A stretch of 63,954 bases of DNA, filler included, from Basidiobolus ranarum (Eukaryota): NCBI GenBank assembly GCA_040143965.1. It is 3 parts of 3 records of this genome, joined end to end, with 100 filler letters (N's around TTAATTAATTAA, not from the genome) between each part and the next. Parts side by side here need not be neighbours in the genome. Positions count along the whole stretch, not along the records: positions 21,802 to 43,463 come from JASJQH010007074.1; 2 more parts are not named here. One strand, 5' to 3'. The notes under the pieces were generated by a model, which was not told the origin of the DNA, ran no database searches, and saw only the letters and a program-made list of their open reading frames with translations. A program made the translations under genes and the position numbers. Shown here in pieces: positions 1 to 42,700 of the stretch; position 1 is the first letter of the stretch, and the number at the start of each line of letters is the position of its first letter.

Positions 1-1137
1 GGTAACAAGAGTCAGCTATTTGCCAAGTGTCAGTGCTATTCAAAATTTCAGATGTTTAGCAATTTTTCCACCATTAGTTTGCTGGTAAAGCATATTGATG
101 TTGTTGAGTTATGTCTGATTAGTCAAGTATGTGCATATGTAGAGACTAAACACAACAAGATTCTTGTATTTTTTGATTCTCATTATGGCTGGAATACAAA
201 GCCAAGAATATCTAAATAAAGGCATGCATATTAATTCAAATTCCTACAGCAGTAAACCCAGCAATTTGCCATTTGAAAATTAGAATTTTGTAAAAATTAT
301 GGGATATTAAATAATGGATGCCTAACATGAGGATCAATATTTTAACATGTATGAATACCATCAAGATGCCATCAGAAAGCCACCATCACACCCTAGAGAT
401 CCCTGGCAGAATGCAAGCCACTGATATTGCAATGGTTCTCTGATAGTTTTGCAATTCAGAAGGCTGGATCCAATCCAGATCAAATTGATTTTATTTTTGT
501 TAGGGTCAAAACATGCCAACTATAATATTTCAAGATAATTGAACATGCATCAAATTAGCAGGAAATTCTATGTTTGATACTAGAAGCAACCATAGAGATA
601 TTAGACATCATTTATCAGATAGACTATAGAGATTAAGTTTATTGACTAAACTTATAGTTCTACAGAAAACATAATTACTGATATTTTAACCAAACCATTG
701 GCTAGGCAGAAATTTGAGAAATTTAGAACTCCCCATGATTAGTTTATGAGAATATTTAGATGAGGGAGCATGTTGAAGTTAACATTGCCTAAAGCACCTA
801 TATTGTAATATATAGCTTAGTATTTGGTTATTGTATATTGCATTAAGATATTACCCATTTTTCTCAATTGGAATTTAGGTAGAATATTTTTTCCAACTTC
901 AAAGTTTTCAGATATATAGACTTTTCAAGCTTGTGCTAGAAGCCCCAAAATATGCACACATGATTTTAGAACTTTTCATGACACATTCCCTACATTAGTT
1001 TGTCTACATCTTGACAAAAGTATAAATGTCAACTTTCAACTCAATAAATCAATAAGTGAAACCCATCAATTTCTCTAAATTCTCCCAACCACTTTCAACA
1101 GGCTCCCAAACACCGTAACACATAATTACCTTCAACA
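1..1137 (+). mobile_element. Degenerate Ty1/copia LTR retrotransposon 3' end (RNase H relic, PPT, 3' LTR)
   Basis: 516-727 translates, with a stop and a frameshift, as PTIIFQDN*TCIKLAGNSMFDTRSNHRDIRHH ... STENIITDILTKPLARQKFEKFR, the copia RNase H C-terminal motifs (DN..AI.LA.N..H.R.KHIDIR.H; ADILTKPL). A purine tract GAGGGAG (762-768) is followed by TGTTGAAG at 771, whose inverted match CTTCAACA is at 1130-1137. No CpG before position 1114. Confidence 0.85.
1009..1121 (-). repeat. Dispersed repeat, probable LTR terminus (TGTTA...), inverted copy of 43352-43463
   Basis: tcttgacaaaagtataaatgtcaactttcaactcaataaatcaataagtgaa...caacaggctcccaaa...taacac aligns with few mismatches to the reverse complement of 43352-43463. 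Similarity stops at TGTTA/TAACA. Confidence 0.85.
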
Positions 1138-23306: not shown

Positions 23307-25759
23307 TTATGTGAAAAGACGAAGTGTGGAGTCAGCTCCACTAGAGAAGATCCATGGCTGAGTAGGATGGAATTCACAGTTGAGAACACCCAAATGATCT
23401 ACAACCTCGTGTCCTTTGAGGATCTTCACTGGGACAACAAGTGGGTTCTGTAAGAGATCGTTGTACACCATTCCGTGGAAGATTTGAATGGAGCCATCAT
23501 CTGATGATGAAGCGAATAATGGGTAACGTTTGTGATAAGCAACTGAGCGAAGTGCCTTAGTATGGTAACGAAGGGTCTTGTAAGGCTTGGAGGAAAGATC
23601 AAGATCGAACCAGCAAAGACGTTTATCGTAACTTCCCATGATAACGTTGTCTCCTTGTGGATGAATGTCTAAGCTGGAAATCCACTTAACACCAGGTTGC
23701 AAAGTCTTTGCCAACTCCTGTTTCATCAAATTATAAATACGGATGTAACGCTGGGTGGCGACAAAGAACAAGGGCTTGGTTGGATGGAATATAATACTTT
23801 GAACCTGTCCCTTAGTCTTGCGGAATGGTGCTTGTGATTGATGCTTGGAAATTTGATGAATTAAAATAGAGGTAGAGTCATCTGGGCAGACAGTAGCCAT
23901 GTAGTCACCCTTCTTATGCCACTTAACTTCCTTGACATCCTTGTTGAAAGTAAGGCTAAGTTGTACCTCATTTTCACCTTTAGACCATTGAACGCTCTTC
24001 TTGGACTGCTCACTCTCTGATCCCTTCTTGGCTTGGAATCCGGATTGCAAGAATTGCTCGGTCAAAAGTTGAGTCTCAGAATCAAATACCTTCTTAGCGG
24101 CAATAAGATGAACTTTGTTGGCAGTAGAAGCAGCAAAGAGGCAGAGATCGCGATTAGGATTCCATGAAACAGAAGTGACAATATCATCGAAAGTCCATGT
24201 TTGGACACAGCGACCAGTTGAAACTTCCCATAATTTGACAGTCTTATCATCGGAACCAGAGACAATCCATAAGCCACTGGGATCAACAGAGAAGCTTCTG
24301 ACACGTGCTTCGTGACCCTTGTATGTGATGGAGAGGGTAGTTGGGAAGGGTTGGAGATCCTTGGGGCTGGGAAGCTTGGGAATCAATGACTCAGGATCAA
24401 TGTTGAGACGGTTCTTACGAACACGAGGGCAGAGATAAAGATCGAGGTTACGTTGGAATCTCTCTTGGATGAATCTATTGTAACCTGGGACTTCGCGTAA
24501 GCTGTTGAATTTCTTGGGAAGGAAATTGCGAGCACGCTCTTCGGGCTCCATATTCTCCCACTCTTCAATCTCCTCTGCAGTAGGCAAATACTCCTCAGGA
24601 GGATTGTAAGACTCGCTGTTGTCGGGCAACTTCATCTTGGGTGCGGGAATATGCATAGGGTGGTCGTCACGAGGTGTATCATCATCGTTCCATAAATTAT
24701 AGAACTTGGGCTTCTCAACAAGAGTTTTCTTGGAAACGATACGACCTTCTCTGATGGCACGTACAATCTTCATAATACGCTTATGCTCCCACTTGGAAGG
24801 AATAAATCTTCTCTTGGGCTCGGGTACATTGTTGACAGGATGAATACTGGTTTTGCTAGTGAAGAAATCAGTCCATGGCTCATAAGGATCATACTCAGCA
24901 TCGGGGATACGGCCCTCTTGAAGGCGTCTAATGATATCAAGCTCATGATCAGTAAGTACCACATCTGTTTGATTAAGTTTATCTTCAACAGAACGCCAAT
25001 TGTCAGGATCATCCATCTTAGCCAAGAAGGAGTCAAGTTCATCCCCTTTAGCGGGTCTCATAATTCTCTTGCCATCAACATCATAACCGATATGAGGGTA
25101 ATCATCATACCACTCCATAGGGATGTTACCAACAGTGTTACCTGTCTAAATAATTAAAACGACAATAAGTAAAAAGGTACAATGTAGGTATTTAGAGAAC
25201 AAGCTGAAGACGTACTTCTTCGGTGGATGAGTCACTATCGTAGTCACCTTCGATATGAGGGAGAAGCTTGCGGCGTCCTTCATGATCAACTGGGCGCCAG
25301 TCTTGAATCTCCTTTGGTTCTTCAGTACCGTCACTGAATCAGACGAATAAGTAAATATGAATACAAATTGGGAAAGAAAAAAGAAAACTACCTGTCTTCA
25401 AAGTCGTATTCTTCTTCATCGTCTTCCTCCTCCTCCAAATCCTCGTCTTCGTCGACACTATCACCAGCGACGTATTCATCCTCAGACTCCTCGTCGTCGT
25501 CCTCCTCCTCTTCTTCTTTTTCCTCCTCGCTTTGTGATTCATACTCGGGGAAAGGTTCAGGTTCGCCTTCGTCCGATTCTATGTCGTCATCTACTTCGTC
25601 ATCAGAAGCCATGTCGATAGCTACGTTTTCGAAGTTATCTTCACTTTCTGATTCCTCTTCAACCTGCTTTCTTTTTACGACAGGTTTTTTAACAGTCTTT
25701 TTGACAGGTTCTTGAGGAAGAACTTTCTTTTTAACAATAACTTTACTTGGTCTCACCAT
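23307..25759 (-). CDS. ERB1: Ribosome biogenesis protein Erb1/BOP1 (3 exons)
   Basis: Acidic N-terminus, BOP1NT region (EWYDDYPHIGYD, PKRRFIPSKWE, ESYNPPEEYL) and a C-terminal WD40 propeller. Confidence 0.97.
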
Positions 25760-26382
25760 GTTTTCGATTTGAAGAAAATAGACAAGAGGTGGAACAACGA
25801 TATGTTAAAGAACAAATAAAAACCGTGGAGGAAATGATTTTTAGTATATACAAAAAAAAATTTAGGAAATTTCCTCTTTTCTTCGTATATACATTTATTC
25901 GATTTTAGTTTAAAAAATCCTACAAATTTTTTTTCTTTTTTTTTCTTTCTTCTAGTGTTATGAATGGAATGGAAACGAGAAATCGGGTTGAAACTTCGGA
26001 TAAAAAATTCCCTCTTGATATCTGCATAACTCTGCTCCTAATTTTCATGGATTTAAGTTATGTTGCATAGATGGTTTTTTTATTGAAATTTTCTACATAT
26101 TAAAGCGTGGGTTGTGCCATCTCCTTGATATCACTAAGATCTCCATTGCCATGTCTAATAAAGAGATGAGAATAAACAACAACGATAAGATTAAAGAATA
26201 AGAGAAGAAATGGAAAGTGAACCATAAAGAAAATAGAAATCATTTAATATACAAAAGCCTCGAGTAGCTTAGCTTTAAAACATGCTGATTCAGTTGCCTA
26301 ATTTCCGAGAAACACAAAAGAAAGCCTGCCAATTGTTTCTTAATATATGAGTCCCAAAGAAATATCCTGGTAGTCGACCTCC

Positions 26383-27350
26383 CTACTGGCTAATGGCACC
26401 TAAATAATCCTCCTTAATGGTTCCAATGGCGAACTTCATAAAACAGCATTGATAAGTATGTAGAACATGGTCATAATGCTAGTAATAGGAATCTGTACGT
26501 ACAATTTCTGTAGCATCAATACGAGTACCAACAATCTTCAGACGTACTAGACCTCCTTTTTCAATAATCTATGTACATAGACGTGGTTTAGAAATATGAC
26601 CAAATAAGTGCTACTTCAAGTATTCTTATACCTGATCTTCAGATTGGTAACAAGGGGGATTTCCATTAGGGTCGAACTTCATATCAGTTGGGATAAGCTA
26701 TTTCGTTACAAAATAAAGATTGATAGTCAGCAAAGGTTGTGGAGTAGTAGCGATAGTGGCAATTTACTTACATGACTAGAAACGAATACTTGTAACGGTC
26801 CAGCATCAGCGAAGAAACCCATCTATTGAAAGGAACTAACATGAGTCACAAATGACCATCCAAGAAAAACCATCCACATACATACCTTATTAACAGTGGA
26901 AACTACCGCGTCTACAACTTCTCCTTTGAAAGGCTTGAATACGATTGCTGTGTATTTCACATTGAATTCCGCCAAACCGAAGCCAGGCAAAAGCTTCCCC
27001 TTACCAATAGTGATAATGTTCACTACAGTAATGATATACCCGAAACGACCGGAACAGGTTCCTTCTACATCTGAATGTAGCTTATCCTTTAAGAAGCCAT
27101 GCATTTCAGGGCCAAAGTATGAAGGATGAAGATGGATCGTGTGCGATAGCTCTTTCTAATAATAAGAGTTGGTTATTTAATGCGAGTTCGTACAGTGTGG
27201 ACCAAGATCAACAAGGTGAGTAAGGTAACGGTTTAATGGTATAGAATAGAAAATCATCAGCTTGGGTATCTACATTTTACGTGACAAATGAAGAATAATA
27301 GCGTGACTAGTCTAGAGCATAAAGAAACTATACACTACCAGGAAAAACAT
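26383..27350 (-). CDS. RPB7: RNA polymerase II subunit Rpb7 (multi-exon)
   Basis: [56 protein letters not shown]. Confidence 0.97.
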
Positions 27351-27755
27351 GGTTGGATGGTTCTACAGCCGGAACGAATGGTAGTATAGATTCTTTTTAT
27401 ATGGAATATGCTTAGTTCGTTCGGAGAGAATGAACCAAGACCGTTCGAGAATAGGGAGCCAAACGCTTAGTAGCCAAAATAATAAACTTCATGAAAGGTC
27501 ATCCCCGGATACGCGTTAACGTGAGATGAAAAAAATGATATTTAGTGAATATTTTTTAATCCATTACAAAACTTTAATCATAAGTTTGATCATTCATTTT
27601 CAACATGTATCTACCATTCCATAATTGCCATTCAACATTGCGGAATAATTAAAAGCTAATTTCAATGCTTATGTTTGATTTTTATATATATTTTATATTT
27701 GGTTTTTGATATTAAAATGGTGATGTACGTTTTCTGAGAGTCTACGATTTCAACA

Positions 27756-28110
27756 TTGGTACCGGCATAAGCCAAGGATAACCCTTGAAGTTCATTCAAG
27801 TATCGGACTCTTTGATCGGTGTCTATTCTTTAGGCGGGAACCGAAAACCGATTCCCTATAAAAGAGCAAACAAAGAACGCCGAATCCCGATGACCTGAAC
27901 TCTGCTTCAAGAATCAGTCACAAGGCGAACCAGCACGAAAACCGTAGGAATTGACTTCCCAGATAAACAACATAAAGTTCGGTCGTATAGCACATCAATG
28001 ACTCAAGCCTCAAAAATCACCAGCCACTAGAAGCTGGTAGGTCTGATAGAGAAAAAATATCATTGCTGAGAGATTTTCAACAGACCTTAATGAGGGATCT
28101 AAGGAATATG
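27756..28110 (-). ncRNA. Candidate structured non-coding RNA with an Sm-type site; family not recognised
   Basis: At least eight adjacent hairpins whose G-U pairs favour the minus strand. AUUUUUG at 28017-28011 directly follows two stems. TATATAA at 28149-28143 lies upstream. CpG-rich island in AT-rich DNA with no ORF in the track. Confidence 0.5.
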
Positions 28111-28223
28111 CATAGTAAGGACAGCATCCAACTCATTTGCTCTTATATACTCATGGCTTTTTTTCATCTTAAGCTAGGGATGAGGTTTATACAAGGGTTA
28201 TGGTGTTAATGTGTCACGAATGC

Positions 28224-28287
28224 TAATATTGCTCTTATTGAGTTACTAATATTAATATTACTCTTATTGAGTTACAAATATTAATAT
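28224..28287. repeat. Imperfect 29-bp tandem duplication
   Basis: taatattgctcttattgagttactaatat / taatattactcttattgagttacaaatat, followed by a partial third unit. Confidence 0.85.
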
Positions 28288-28481
28288 CACTTCACTTATC
28301 AGTTATCAATATTTATTTAGTTCTATTTAAATTAGAATAGCAAATAGTGAGGGGCGAAGAGGGAATAAGGCGGGAGATGGGTGGGTGATGCAGTGGAGAC
28401 AGATTGAAAACTTCCTGCAAGGAAATACGAGTTTACACAGTATTTGGGATTCTCTATTGATTCTAAGGTCTGAAGAGCAAA

Positions 28482-30992
28482 TCATTTTTTGGATTTACCA
28501 AAGGTCATACTACGATTACCATCATGTGGTCGTGTATGTGTTTTGGGCCCCTTCTTCTTGAATTTCTTGTCTCCCTCGATGGTAGCATATGGATCAAAGC
28601 GTGGAACACCTCGTTTCTTACCCTCGTTAAGTACGTGATGGAATTTGTGTGGGTTCACTTCATCCAATTGGTTTTTGGCTTCTACAGTGCTATAGTCGAA
28701 AGATTTGAACTCACCCTGGTCTTCCTGGGTCTCTTGAGGTTGAGCTACTGTCTTGTTCTTTTTAATTGGCTTCTTCTTTTTCTTCTCACCTGGTGCAGCT
28801 GGTCTTTTCAGGATATCCACCGGAACATCGATTTCGTTGTCTTCATTAGGAAGTAGCACCATATCCTCGTCACTCTGTTCAGCTTTAGGCTCATCGTCAT
28901 GAACACGTTTCTTAGGGAGATCGGAGATAACCAAAACTTCATGTTCTTTTTTGGTAGCGCGCTCTTTGGGTGCGACATAAACATGAACTCCAGGGGGCTC
29001 CAGTGTTTTATCATCAATAAGATGTGGAACTTCAACCGTAAGCTGTAGAGTGGAGTGTATTGTTTCAGCCAACTTTTTGTTGTTTCTTTCCACTTCAGAT
29101 TCCAATTCTGGCATCTCGTCAAATAGAGAAGAAGCAGTGGCCAAATATGGAGTAGCATCAACCATTTCCAAAGGAGATACATTGATTCTAGCTCCAGTGT
29201 TGGACTCAGGCACAGTTTGGTCATTGGTTTTCGTAGGATTCTTTAGCCCGTCGGTTTCTCCACCAGCTTCACTATCATCGAAGCGTGTATGCGTTGGCGC
29301 CACTTTAGGCAAAACGTCTTTAGTCATGTTTTTGGCCATCTCGGATTCGGCATTTGACTTGGTTCTAAGGATTAGGGTTCCTAAATCGGAAGCAAATAAT
29401 CTTACGATCGGTGGAATAGGATTACAACATCCTAGAACCCCTGGGGCATCCGTAGGCATACGTTCAGATAACGCAAACAACATATGGTTTGGAAGGACGT
29501 AACGAGTACTTTCATCCTCATCTCTAGCTGTTTGATCTCTCCATGCGTGAAGGGCTCTAAACACGGCAAACTGACGATAGTCCATGGCACGATTCCATTT
29601 GCTATACAAGTTCTTCCATCCGCCTGGACCTTCGCCAGTCTCGGGATTGTGGACCTCCTTTTCATAGGTACGCAATGCTGTTTCTTTGGATCGATCAAGC
29701 GTGGCAAGCATAAGGTTCAACGTAGTAGGGTTGGATTTGTTGATCAGTTCGTTGCGCATACGATCGTAGATATAAAGCAAGTAGTGTGTATCAGTTCTGG
29801 CATATTTCATCATCTCGGTAGGTAATGGGCGAATACGCCAGTCGGCAAGTTGATACTTCTTATCCGCATCAACATCAACATAGTGCTTTAACAAGAATGC
29901 CAGCGAATGGCTGGGGAATTCGAGCATCTTAGAGGCATGGAAAGTATCGAACAAGTGAACCACATAAAGACCTAGATCACGTTGGAGCCATTGGATATCC
30001 ATCTCTGCACCATGCAATACTTTGATGACTGTTGGGTCGGTGAACATCTTGTTGAGAACATGAAGCGAGTTGCGTAACTCAATGGTATCAACGATGAAGT
30101 CCTCATCACGTGTACTAAGTTGCATCAAACAAACAAACCCTTGGAATGAACGGTAACTGTGATGTTCTAAATCCACAGCGATCTCCTTGACTCCCTCCAA
30201 CCTCTGCATCATTTGTTCAAGACCCTCTTCGGTGTCAACCCATGTGGCACTGGTGTTGTCAAATGGCTGATAAAGCTGCTCAGGCTTGGCCTCCATAACG
30301 TGTTGAGGGTATGGTTGATGATTAAGCTCATACTCGTATGGGTGTGGAAGACTCATAGTGACATCACCATAACCCATATTCTTCATATGGTTGGCCAATG
30401 CCTCACTAACTTTGTGTTGGGTGAGACTGCTTGGTAATCCATAATCCAAAGGAACCAGTGCATTAGGCTTCTCTTTGATTATTCTTATCCAGGGTGTACT
30501 GGCAGAGTTATCGACAGTATCTTTAAATTTAAGCTGAGGTCTTAAAATATTCTGTGCATGAATCAAGTGATATTCTGATTTATCGTCGGTAGATAGCTTT
30601 GCTATACTAGCCGCACCTTGAAGGGTGGCAGTAGAAAGACTGGCGTTTAATTTTCCAGTATGTTCATCTAAACAGACATCAGCCTTTTCGAGTAGGTTGT
30701 CTACTACATCCACAACTCCACCGTATCTATCTTGTACATCATCAATATCGTAAAAAGTATCGGTGATATCTCCTCCGGCGTGTTTCAACAGTTCATTTGA
30801 CATTCTAAGGACCTTACTAGCACAGTTATCAATAGCTGTAGCCAAATCCAAGTCCAAAGACTTGTGAAACGAAAGATCAGCCGGTAAAACGCTAGCAGCT
30901 CTCGTAGCGCCTATTAAAGTACCGAAGAAACTTTTGGAGAAATCCTCAAAGTTCTCGGTAATTTTGGAAAAATGAACTCTTTCCTCACTCAT
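28482..30992 (-). CDS. RRP6: Exosome nuclease Rrp6/EXOSC10 (intronless)
   Basis: PMC2NT N-terminus, DEDD exonuclease (AVDLEHH, ADWRIRP, YARTDTHYL), HRDC domain (WRDQTARDEDES..YVLPN), basic tail. ATG at 30992. Confidence 0.97.
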   Translation of the reverse strand: MSEERVHFSKITENFEDFSKSFFGTLIGATRAASVLPADLSFHKSLDLDLATAIDNCASKVLRMSNELLKHAGGDITDTFYDIDDVQDRYGGVVDVVDNLLEKADVCLDEHTGKLNASLSTATLQGAASIAKLSTDDKSEYHLIHAQNILRPQLKFKDTVDNSASTPWIRIIKEKPNALVPLDYGLPSSLTQHKVSEALANHMKNMGYGDVTMSLPHPYEYELNHQPYPQHVMEAKPEQLYQPFDNTSATWVDTEEGLEQMMQRLEGVKEIAVDLEHHSYRSFQGFVCLMQLSTRDEDFIVDTIELRNSLHVLNKMFTDPTVIKVLHGAEMDIQWLQRDLGLYVVHLFDTFHASKMLEFPSHSLAFLLKHYVDVDADKKYQLADWRIRPLPTEMMKYARTDTHYLLYIYDRMRNELINKSNPTTLNLMLATLDRSKETALRTYEKEVHNPETGEGPGGWKNLYSKWNRAMDYRQFAVFRALHAWRDQTARDEDESTRYVLPNHMLFALSERMPTDAPGVLGCCNPIPPIVRLFASDLGTLILRTKSNAESEMAKNMTKDVLPKVAPTHTRFDDSEAGGETDGLKNPTKTNDQTVPESNTGARINVSPLEMVDATPYLATASSLFDEMPELESEVERNNKKLAETIHSTLQLTVEVPHLIDDKTLEPPGVHVYVAPKERATKKEHEVLVISDLPKKRVHDDEPKAEQSDEDMVLLPNEDNEIDVPVDILKRPAAPGEKKKKKPIKKNKTVAQPQETQEDQGEFKSFDYSTVEAKNQLDEVNPHKFHHVLNEGKKRGVPRFDPYATIEGDKKFKKKGPKTHTRPHDGNRSMTFGKSKK

Positions 30993-31478
30993 TTTTATCG
31001 AGGGAATATGAAAAATAGGTAGTGTAAGACGATTTAACAAACTCCGATATTTCAAAGAATAACTACCAAAAAAATTGTTTGTGATTAATCTGTATGTATG
31101 TATAGGCTATTTTACAAAGTAGTAAACACGGGAAGGAAATCGTTGAACTACCTTGAGTGAGAAATTCTAGGTTCAACCACAAGAGTGCTGTGGAAAATGA
31201 AAATTCCCCCTTTGAAAAAAAAAATAAAAAAAATCCCAAATTTCTAATATTCCCAATAATTATCTGAAAGTGTTTCTGGAATACTTCACTATTTGGATTA
31301 ATCGAAATTGTTGTGTACACAATAACTCAGTGATCGTTGATTGATTATCAATTGATTGAACATGTCACGACACGTAGTTTGATTTTCGTGAAGCGAGTAA
31401 ATATTATTGTTAGTCACGTAGAGTTAACCTGCAGAAGAACTAACTCTTTGATACAATACGAGCGTGAATTATGCGTAC

Positions 31479-39733: not shown

Positions 39734-42700
39734 ATGGAAGAAAGAATCGACGCCCTAATTGATATTTTAGAAACTTGTGAGCAATTTTAAACCTTTATTT
39801 AAGCTAGTGTCAACTAATTGAAAAAACTTTCTAGCTTCGAAAGCAAATTACTCCAGCGCCCAAATAGAACACAGTATATTCACTCTTCACGAATTCACTT
39901 CAAAATATGGTTTAGAAACAAAGCAACTCAAAAAACTGTTGAATATATTGTCAAGTGGAAATCTTGGTAGCTGTTGTTTCTTGATTGTACATTTTCTTAA
40001 CTGTTTGACTCACAGGTATCTCTAGATAATACCAATAGCAAGCATTTAATCAAAACCTTGTTCCCAAGGAGTGTATTTCCTGAAGACGTAGTGATAGAAG
40101 TATTAGGAATGTTGTCAGCCGACGAAGACCTCACCGTAAAGGTTTCACTATATAGAAGTTTTGTGAGAGGTGGATTATATGTTTAGACGCTAAAAATTCG
40201 TAAAATCATCAATACTTTAGCTCAGTCTGATACATTGGATAATTATGGTGTTCGACCAGATCGAATCCAAACTGAAGATAAAAAAACTCTATGGAGTGTT
40301 CTTTCGTCTTTTGGAGCACGACGCATTACGGTTCTTATTTTACTTTGAAATAACTTTGACACTCGCGTACTAATATTCTGTCTGTTAGGCACTCTGTATG
40401 TCATCTTTTGTTCTTGATCACTGGCCGGGAACACGTCAAGTCTTTCCGAGTACATAAATTGTAATATCTCTCATCTATTGAAGGTAGCTAGCTGGCCGAT
40501 CATCATTGACATTGGTCTATATGTAGGATGGACTTATATAACCGTGTGAACTCAGAGCCCGGACTTTGTAGTCTTTTAAAAGTATACAAGGACTATTGTC
40601 CAAATCTATTTAGTCTTCACTTCGACATTCCCAAGGGTGCTTTTAAAGCGCCAGATATAGCCTGGGTTGAATGCTTATCCAACATACATATAAATAGTAG
40701 TGATAGTACCACAGGATATAGTACAGTCGATTTTGGATTCTCTGTAAGTTTATATCTCTATACTGTTGTAAAATCCAACGAAACCATTGTAATATCATTT
40801 GTTGTTTCACAAGATGAACCCAAGCAATGGCAATGTGGGTGACAGCAAACAGTCAATGCCGAGTATCATGTTTATCTAACGATATTATATTCACTAGGGG
40901 CAGACGGGAAGTGACCAGCTTAATAACATCGATAGTCTAGTGCTTGATCTTAGCGTCAAAGATCTTCCGCAACAGTTTACTTCTGTTTTAGATAGTCACC
41001 TTTTACAACTTTTCGTTACAACTCATCCAGACAGTATAGTGTCAATCTCCATATTATTTTCATAGTATGTATACTAAAGTGACTTTCTATAGAGGCTGCC
41101 TTCAAAAGAATCGAAACCTGGGCCTGCGATTACCTAGTGAACTTGGCAATATGGAGAGACCAAAATATTACTACTAAGAATCTTTTTCAAGGATTGTTAA
41201 AGAAAATATGCGATGCACTGGAGATGAATAAGGTACACTGGGGATTTTACTTAGCAATAATGCAGATAATCATGTCAATAACCATCAGATACTTTAACAA
41301 TATCACAGAGTTTATTTTACGGTTTTGAGGGCTTCTTGACCAGCTATCTGTGCTATTGGGATGGTAGAGCATGCCAAAAAGAGATATTTACCATGGTCTC
41401 TCATATGCCTCTAAAGCCCTTCAACGGTAAGTCATTGTTCATTATTGGATTTGGCTCTTATTAAACAATTTTCTTCACTTTTCATAGAACTCCACAAAGA
41501 TTTCTTAAATCCTTTGCATAAGCTTTACCTGATTTCATCGGAAGCTTGGAAGGCAAGCGGCTTATTTACTGCAAACTTTATCGATATGAAACTAATGTAA
41601 ATATGTTTTGTTTTACACCAGGCGTCCTTGATTGATTGCTACACTTGCTTGCTCAGAAATTGGTCTCTCGCAGAATGGCCACTTGCTTCTAAATCTGATG
41701 ATAGCCACGTCCGGTAAGTCTTGGTCGTTAAGGAAATTTACACAGGCTGGTTTACAATTTGTAGACCACTTTTTCTTTCATCATTCTTATAATTCACTTT
41801 AAACTTATCAGCTTCGAGCGTATCCAGACAATAAGAGGCTTCGCTGCTTATGTAGAGAAGGTGTTGGTTATTGGCCTTGAGGTATGCTCCTATTTCCATT
41901 ACGAAGAAATTTTATTTCATTCATTGATGGTTAAATCTGTGTCTTTAGGCTGAGAAAAATTCTATTCATCTTTTGCATAAAGTTTTGGAGTTTTACGAGG
42001 AAGTAGGTTCCGTTTCATTTCAATCATATGCGACAATTCTGGAAAATAACACGAGCTATTATCAGATGACGGCGTTCTCTTTGGAATGCGGTGTACCATT
42101 GCTGACCATTCCCAATCGGTATATATTGTGCAGCTCCTTATTCAATATCTCTTTGATGCCAATTTCTCGAATTTGTGGAATTCTAGCCAGGTATTTAGTA
42201 CTGTTGAGATATCCCTTCTACTAACTCAAAAATTGAGTTACTTATTTTTATTATAGATGCAAGTCCTCATATGAATGGCAGAGAAATTTGAAAATCACCA
42301 ATGGGTCCTTTTCGTTAGGATATGAACGAGAACACGTTACTCAGCTCAATATTAACATCATGGATGCGTGTAATTGCCTGTGGAGAGGTCAAGCATTGAA
42401 TTACACAGATCCTAATACTAGTGGATTCGGACTAGATAGGTATGCTCTTTGATAACCTTCTTCTCCATATCCCATCCCATTAACTCTTTATCACCAGTGA
42501 GACTATTCGTGAAATAGAGCATATATGTCAGAATGCTGAGCTTTCCTTGTCTTGTCTATTTGGTTTAACTCAATCCCCAGTATTTTTACCTCTTTCACTT
42601 GAATTTCTGAAAGGATTAGAAAATGAAGCAGGTGTTACAGTACATCATCAAGGCCCCATTAGCTCCGCTTCATTAAGAATACTCCGACAACAGGTAACTA

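Follow-up and report, generated by a model that had tools for sequence, protein, structure and literature searches.

The question raised by this locus is what kind of RNA, if any, is encoded on the minus strand between the RRP6-type exonuclease gene and RPB7 of Basidiobolus ranarum, within a stretch of 63,954 nucleotides that was analysed as a whole and is here called the window. A first-pass annotation had described at 27756–28110 a novel structured RNA of the Sm class with its own TATA box, and the stems, motifs and TATA box that it listed were all found in their places when the minus strand was read. The sequence and the modelled fold make it likely that we are dealing with an independently transcribed box H/ACA snoRNA of approximately 390 nt, a fungal RNA that would act as a dual guide of the SNORA53 type, directed at LSU rRNA. 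The gene is real, previously unannotated and of a known kind; its unusual traits are the expanded 3′ hairpin, the fungal host and the organisation as an independent gene. It is positioned in the middle of the 1.1-kb gap that separates RRP6 from RPB7, and all of its neighbouring genes are on the minus strand, as follows.

31055–28482, minus strand: RRP6-type exonuclease with PMC2NT, 3′-5′ exonuclease and HRDC domains
28143–28149, minus strand: TATA-like box TATATAA, read from the sequence, 32 nt upstream of where the 5′ stem begins
27721–28112, minus strand: box H/ACA snoRNA in its predicted mature form, about 391 nt long, with both ends predicted and the layout taken from the MFE fold
27350, minus strand: ATG of RPB7, followed by an intron, with the SHS2 domain at 27104–26823
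25118–23307, minus strand: BOP1/Erb1 homologue

We infer that TATATAA acts as the promoter of the snoRNA gene and that the gene is expressed from it; the position of this box is consistent with an independent polymerase II gene. Of the elements listed at first, the AUAUUCCUUAGAUCC... start was located at approximately 28109 on the minus strand. A 29-bp tandem repeat (28224–28291; 2.3 copies, 92% matches) is situated upstream of the snoRNA TATA box, in the AT-rich spacer that separates this box from the stop codon of RRP6; it might serve as an upstream or promoter element, or be a simple repeat only. Four same-strand genes tied to RNA or ribosome biogenesis, namely RRP6, the H/ACA snoRNA, RPB7 and BOP1/Erb1, are located together at 23307–31055, a grouping that may be a coincidence. 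RRP6 is an exosome nuclease that trims the 3′ ends of snoRNAs. Proteins resembling the RRP6 encoded here, as judged by language-model similarity, were for the most part from Ascomycota.

Both strands were folded to examine the proposal that the locus is a discrete gene for a structured non-coding RNA made from one strand only. The 398-nt stretch 27715–28112 folded with −132.7 kcal/mol (z = −5.40), and none of 100 shuffled sequences folded equally well. For the whole RNA, the minus strand gave −132.3 kcal/mol and 21 G-U pairs versus −92.0 kcal/mol and 10 G-U pairs for the plus strand. The same bias was detected for the 3′ part alone, with a z-score of −6.34 and −92.4 kcal/mol on the minus strand versus −2.69 and −61 kcal/mol on the plus strand. 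The G+C content is 42% in the RNA versus 31–34% in the flanks. When the segment 27690–28160 was compared with the window by blastn, only the self-match and matches of 12–18 nt with E of at least 1 were obtained, so that no second copy of the RNA is present within the window. A transposable element or dispersed repeat was rejected on this basis. The fold far beyond chance, the strand bias, the G+C contrast and the lack of another copy in the window together indicate that a structured and strand-specific RNA gene is genuinely present as a sequence feature. The survival of CpG, which had been offered as a further argument, is a weak one, as the observed/expected ratio is 0.91 in the RNA versus 0.39 in the upstream and 1.32 in the downstream flank.

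The family of this RNA was examined with Rfam. No match was obtained in the window at gathering thresholds, rDNA being absent from it as well, and RF00563 (SNORA53) was the only family with E < 0.9 when the whole window was searched on both strands with 4227 families. This match covers 28112–27950 on the minus strand with 32.4 bits, short of the 38-bit gathering score, and its E-value is 9.6 × 10⁻⁴ window-wide and 1.1 × 10⁻⁵ on the 701-nt stretch 27600–28300. The first-pass annotation had regarded a strong match to a known Rfam family as speaking against novelty; a significant match to SNORA53 was indeed found, although it stays under the gathering score. The other six rows of the search on 27600–28300 up to E 10 were on the plus strand or weak (E 0.089 to 9.2) and are taken as chance. 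Elsewhere in the window, a sub-threshold match to mir-7398 (39834–39893, minus strand; 25.7 bits versus a gathering score of 44, E 0.99) is also taken as chance. The RF00563 alignment reproduced the nested stems of the family along with its pair of distal hairpins, and CCUUAGAUCC and GCUUGAGUCAUUG are identical in the window and the RF00563 consensus. The 3′ half of the model aligned poorly to the window RNA.

Relatives were collected by scanning for a pattern of two conserved strings from the window spaced 70–100 nt apart. This pattern gave eight loci in metagenomes and is specific, since it had no match in 596 Gb of prokaryote genomes or in viral contigs. Over the stretch compared, two of the loci (L005 and L007) are duplicates of L004; they were dropped without an Rfam scan, and the remaining six all exceeded the SNORA53 gathering score with 63–71 bits. 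These are canonical SNORA53 genes of 201–263 nt, and the long 3′ hairpin of the window RNA was in none of the metagenome loci retrieved with the pattern. The 5′ domains were then compared in a seven-row alignment, of which L002 and L003 are near-duplicate rows and 23 columns are invariant by construction because the loci were fetched with strings from the window. For this alignment RNAalifold predicted a consensus structure of 29 pairs, 13 with compensatory change, the window itself being among the sequences from which the structure was predicted. Of these 29 pairs, 26 are present in the window: 16 as the commonest pair, 1 through a change on one side and 9 through changes on both sides; the other 3 are broken. 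Approximately 160 nt downstream of the bona fide SNORA53 in locus L003, an exon-like segment (837–1004, plus strand) resembles a coding stretch for a mitochondrial-carrier C-terminus (Pfam Mito_carr, E 3.4 × 10⁻⁴, 20.7 bits, below the 22.3-bit cut-off). Human SNORA53 is inside an intron of SLC25A3 (Jady 2022, PMC8763049); the carrier exon fits this host gene, and the L003 locus is therefore probably of animal origin.

The MFE structure of 28112–27721 consists of a hairpin, a hinge, a hairpin and a tail, which is the layout of an H/ACA RNA. Its 5′ half contains the following elements.

27990–28111, minus strand: 5′ hairpin of the SNORA53 type, from the RF00563 alignment and the MFE fold of the isolated domain
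28095–28104, minus strand: upstream antisense element CCUUAGA (28104–28098) with the conserved UCC, identical to the Rfam consensus
28039–28087, minus strand: element matching the "long major hairpin" of SNORA53, with mean pair probabilities of 0.89–0.93
28019–28038, minus strand: short internal stem-loop ACCAGCU/GGCUGGU, a branch of the 5′ hairpin, with a pair probability of 0.99
28011–28017, minus strand: AUUUUUG, a joiner from the internal stem-loop to the UGAGG strand
27998–28007, minus strand: CUU (28007–28005), GA and the downstream antisense element GUCAU (28002–27998), identical to the Rfam consensus
27983–27988, minus strand: H box AUACGA, which fits ANANNA and is single-stranded in the fold

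The 5′ hairpin is closed by the stem GCAUAUU/GAUGUGC, which is followed by CUUAG/UUGAG and CCUCA/UGAGG. Folded in isolation, the 5′ domain had a z-score of −3.33 and adopted a branched shape as in SNORA53. It includes the stems GGUCUG/CAGACC (28086–28081 with 28045–28040) and UACCAGCU/GGCUGGUG (28039–28032 with 28025–28018), and its ACCAGCU/GGCUGGU stem-loop matches both the second hairpin in the Rfam consensus and what is called the "short internal stem-loop" in SNORA53. Furthermore, the offset of AUACGA is the same as that of the H box in the Rfam consensus and in the six metagenome SNORA53 genes, and the base preceding AUACGA is 14 nt away from the G of GUCAU. The bipartite pocket of this hairpin is hence flanked by CCUUAGA and GUCAU at the canonical distance from the H box. 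The first nine bases of the RNA resemble the m1 motif of snR30/U17. An assignment to snR30/U17 was rejected, as these bases are engaged in the stem that closes the 5′ hairpin, and in 27600–28300 Rfam gave no snR30/SNORA73 match up to E 10.

By the account of Jady (2022, PMC8763049), the 5′ hairpin of human SNORA53 guides the formation of both 28S Ψ3747 and Ψ3749. In that RNA, 10-CCUUAGA-17 pairs with 28S 3749-UCUUAAGG-3756, leaving U3752 bulged, G136–U140 pairs with A3742–C3746, and the bulged 131-CUU-133 is required for the second register; the guide elements proven by mutagenesis are C10–U13, 131-CUU-133 and G136–U140 (PMC8763049). All the functional guide nucleotides of SNORA53 are intact in the window. 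Built on the observed likeness to SNORA53 in sequence and structure, the positions of the boxes and the strand-specific folding, a model can be drawn in which the 5′ hairpin would form a dual pseudouridylation pocket of the SNORA53 type with its target in the rRNA of the fungus itself. LSU rRNA flanking two uridines one base apart would pair with CCUUAGA from the 5′ side of the hairpin and with GUCAU from its 3′ side, and the CUU bulge would permit two alternative registers. A bound Cbf5/dyskerin complex would isomerise both uridines, whose counterparts would be U3747/U3749 in human 28S and, in yeast 25S, the pair that snR82 serves. In this model the H and ACA boxes, together with the long 3′ hairpin, would supply assembly and stability. 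The target pseudouridines presumably lie just 3′ of helix 69 of the LSU rRNA.

The 3′ half of the RNA is occupied by the elements below.

27728–27969, minus strand: long 3′ hairpin of approximately 240 nt, −92.4 kcal/mol, z = −6.34
27936–27944, minus strand: CGGUUUUCG, copy 2, which pairs with GAAAUCGUA in the MFE fold
27842–27850, minus strand: CGGUUUUCG, copy 1, the loop at the apex of the 3′ hairpin
27724–27726, minus strand: ACA box, one unpaired base past the 3′ hairpin, from sequence and fold

The 3′ hairpin begins 20 nt past the H box and is capped by GGGAAUCG-GUUUU-CGGUUCCC. Mean pair probabilities are 0.79–1.00 for 15 of its 16 helices and 0.63 for the basal UGUUU/AAACG. According to the H/ACA rule, the 3′ end of the RNA would be placed at 27721, 3 nt beyond ACA. 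The extent given at first was hence about 35 nt too short on the 3′ side, as the feature runs to approximately 27721. The local stems that had been described are present in the sequence, but several of those in the 3′ part give way to long-range pairs in the MFE fold; the stems replaced in this fold include CCUUA/UAAGG, the UGAC...GGUCA arm, CUUGAA/UUCAAG and GGC-UUAU-GCC. The hairpin is approximately 2.5 times the usual size and is without sequence likeness to the 3′ hairpins of SNORA53. In its MFE fold no two-sided internal loop was seen 14–16 nt from ACA, a site that falls within a helix, and the hairpin is therefore read as a structural element that probably guides no modification. The two copies of CGGUUUUCG were confirmed: this motif (CGGTTTTCG) occurs only twice in the 64-kb window, at 27944–27936 and 27850–27842, both within the 3′ hairpin, whereas 0.27 occurrences are expected. 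Two copies were reached in 4 of 100 shuffles. Copy 2 could form a small local hairpin instead of its long-range pairing.

Other explanations of the locus were weighed against the SNORA53-type guide. It is very improbable that AUUUUUG is an Sm site and the RNA a novel Sm-class species, whether an snRNA resembling U2/U12, an RNA of the spliced-leader type or a portion of a telomerase RNA. The string does come after two stems, a TATA box is present upstream, and UUAAGG offers possible pairing to a branch site of the minor type, as was originally argued. However, ATTTTTG is found 21 times in the window versus 25.7 expected, which is a chance frequency, and AUUUUUG is a joiner inside the SNORA53-type 5′ hairpin, where the aligned columns of the six SNORA53 genes hold AUCGGAG-type strings and no U-run. 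Furthermore, the strings that appeared U2/U12-like, CUUAGAUC and UUAAGG, belong to or adjoin the conserved upstream antisense element of the SNORA53-type pocket. Within 27600–28300, Rfam listed no snRNA (U1, U2, U4, U5, U11 or U12), SL, SRP, RNase P/MRP or telomerase family up to E 10, which speaks against the Sm-class, spliced-leader and telomerase proposals. A score under the Rfam gathering value is what would also be seen for a decayed, non-functional snoRNA relic or for a chance resemblance from which no RNA is made. We regard this as quite improbable in view of the intact functional guide nucleotides, the 26 of 29 family pairs kept, nine of them through double changes, the fold z-scores of −5.4 and −6.3, the G+C contrast of 42% with 31–34% in the flanks, and the lack of any match of the two-string pattern in 596 Gb of prokaryote DNA.

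It is improbable, too, that the SNORA53-type hairpin is real while the RNA is otherwise built, the long hairpin being a separate unit, an insertion or a small-RNA precursor, or the guide ending at AUA-CGA; the guide hairpin might then be a single-hairpin or differently bounded RNA. Such a build would accommodate the oversized 3′ hairpin with no canonical pocket, the AUA at 27988–27986 that is readable as a variant of the ACA box, and the plus-strand fold of the 3′ part, which at z = −2.69 is also somewhat beyond chance, as that of a DNA inverted repeat would be. The ends of the RNA, moreover, are deduced from sequence and fold. Against it, the hairpin starts 20 nt past the H box and ACA is situated one base beyond the last pair; its strand bias is strong and has the same sense as that of the guide hairpin, and no other copy is present in the window. 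A missing first hairpin is unlikely because the region upstream of the guide hairpin contains the TATA box and folds weakly. We hence retain the two-hairpin H/ACA snoRNA with a SNORA53-type guide as the preferred reading.

The relation of this guide to those described for fungi was considered next. Canzler (2018, PMC5824354) describes the equivalent of S. cerevisiae 25S-2351 as a site of the second hairpin of HACA_2 (Nc ACA2), and in Saccharomycotina the 25S-2351 site is assigned to snR82 (HACA_31) (PMC5824354). Liu (2009, PMC2780460) describes Neurospora Nc ACA2 as an intergenic RNA of 159 nt whose ACA-side hairpin guides 26S-Ψ2313, and lists 16 of 20 Neurospora H/ACA genes as intergenic. Again, snR82 is described to serve two neighbouring uridines, 25S-2351 and its neighbour (Jady 2022, PMC8763049). 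Conservation of the target in fungi is taken from these published descriptions. Since the fungal catalogues have this rRNA site guided from the second hairpin of a different family, convergence on one target could account in part for the resemblance between the antisense strings of the window RNA and those of SNORA53. A literature search in one searchable collection gave no paper on a fungal SNORA53 among the matches listed, as judged by title and abstract, and a literature search with motif strings gave no snoRNA paper among the titles and abstracts of the matches listed. It is conceivable, though unlikely, that the SNORA53 dual guide is ancient to animals and fungi, that the RNA described here is its true first-hairpin orthologue, existing beside HACA_2/snR82 or replacing it, and that its lineage-specific 3′ hairpin has gained a second function. 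This function may be protein binding, processing or the supply of a small RNA, the hairpin bearing two copies of CGGUUUUCG.

With the preferred assignment to a SNORA53-type H/ACA guide, an orphan "Sm RNA" becomes an annotatable snoRNA gene with a specific predicted target, namely two neighbouring LSU pseudouridines. The case also indicates that fungal H/ACA genes with an expanded non-guide hairpin are overlooked by standard Rfam thresholds. If the RNA is orthologous to SNORA53, the range of the dual-guide hairpin would extend from animals to fungi, and a further case would be added in which one rRNA site is served from differing hairpin positions across fungal lineages. The gain on the latter point is modest, since switches of hairpin position have already been described (Canzler 2018, PMC5824354).

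Among known systems, the window RNA shares with Sm-class snRNAs (U2, U12) and SL RNAs the organisation as a TATA-driven small RNA gene and an AU5G string after stems. It is distinguished from them by the lack of an Rfam match to these classes, and by an Sm-like string that occurs at chance frequency and is placed inside a hairpin of an H/ACA fold. It resembles HACA_2 and snR82 in being fungal and in having the same predicted LSU site, and Nc ACA2 in being intergenic. These RNAs carry their guide in the second, ACA-side hairpin, whereas that of the window RNA is in the first, H-side hairpin, a distinction drawn here from published descriptions; its length of approximately 390 nt also differs from the 159 nt of Nc ACA2. 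The closest comparison is with SNORA53 (RF00563). The window RNA departs from it in scoring 32.4 bits versus a gathering score of 38 and 63–71 bits for the six metagenome genes, in a 3′ hairpin of approximately 240 nt versus roughly 100 nt, and in a total length of about 390 nt versus 201–263 nt in those genes. Furthermore, its gene is intergenic with its own TATA box, while that of human SNORA53 is intronic, and its host is a fungus, while SNORA53 is known from animals. Similar to SNORA53, it has the guide in a branched 5′ hairpin composed of a long distal hairpin as well as an internal stem-loop that is short, together with a 3′ hairpin without obvious guide function, and the two share CCUUAGAUCC, the CUU bulge and GUCAUUG in identical form as well as the 14-nt spacing from GUCAU to the H box.
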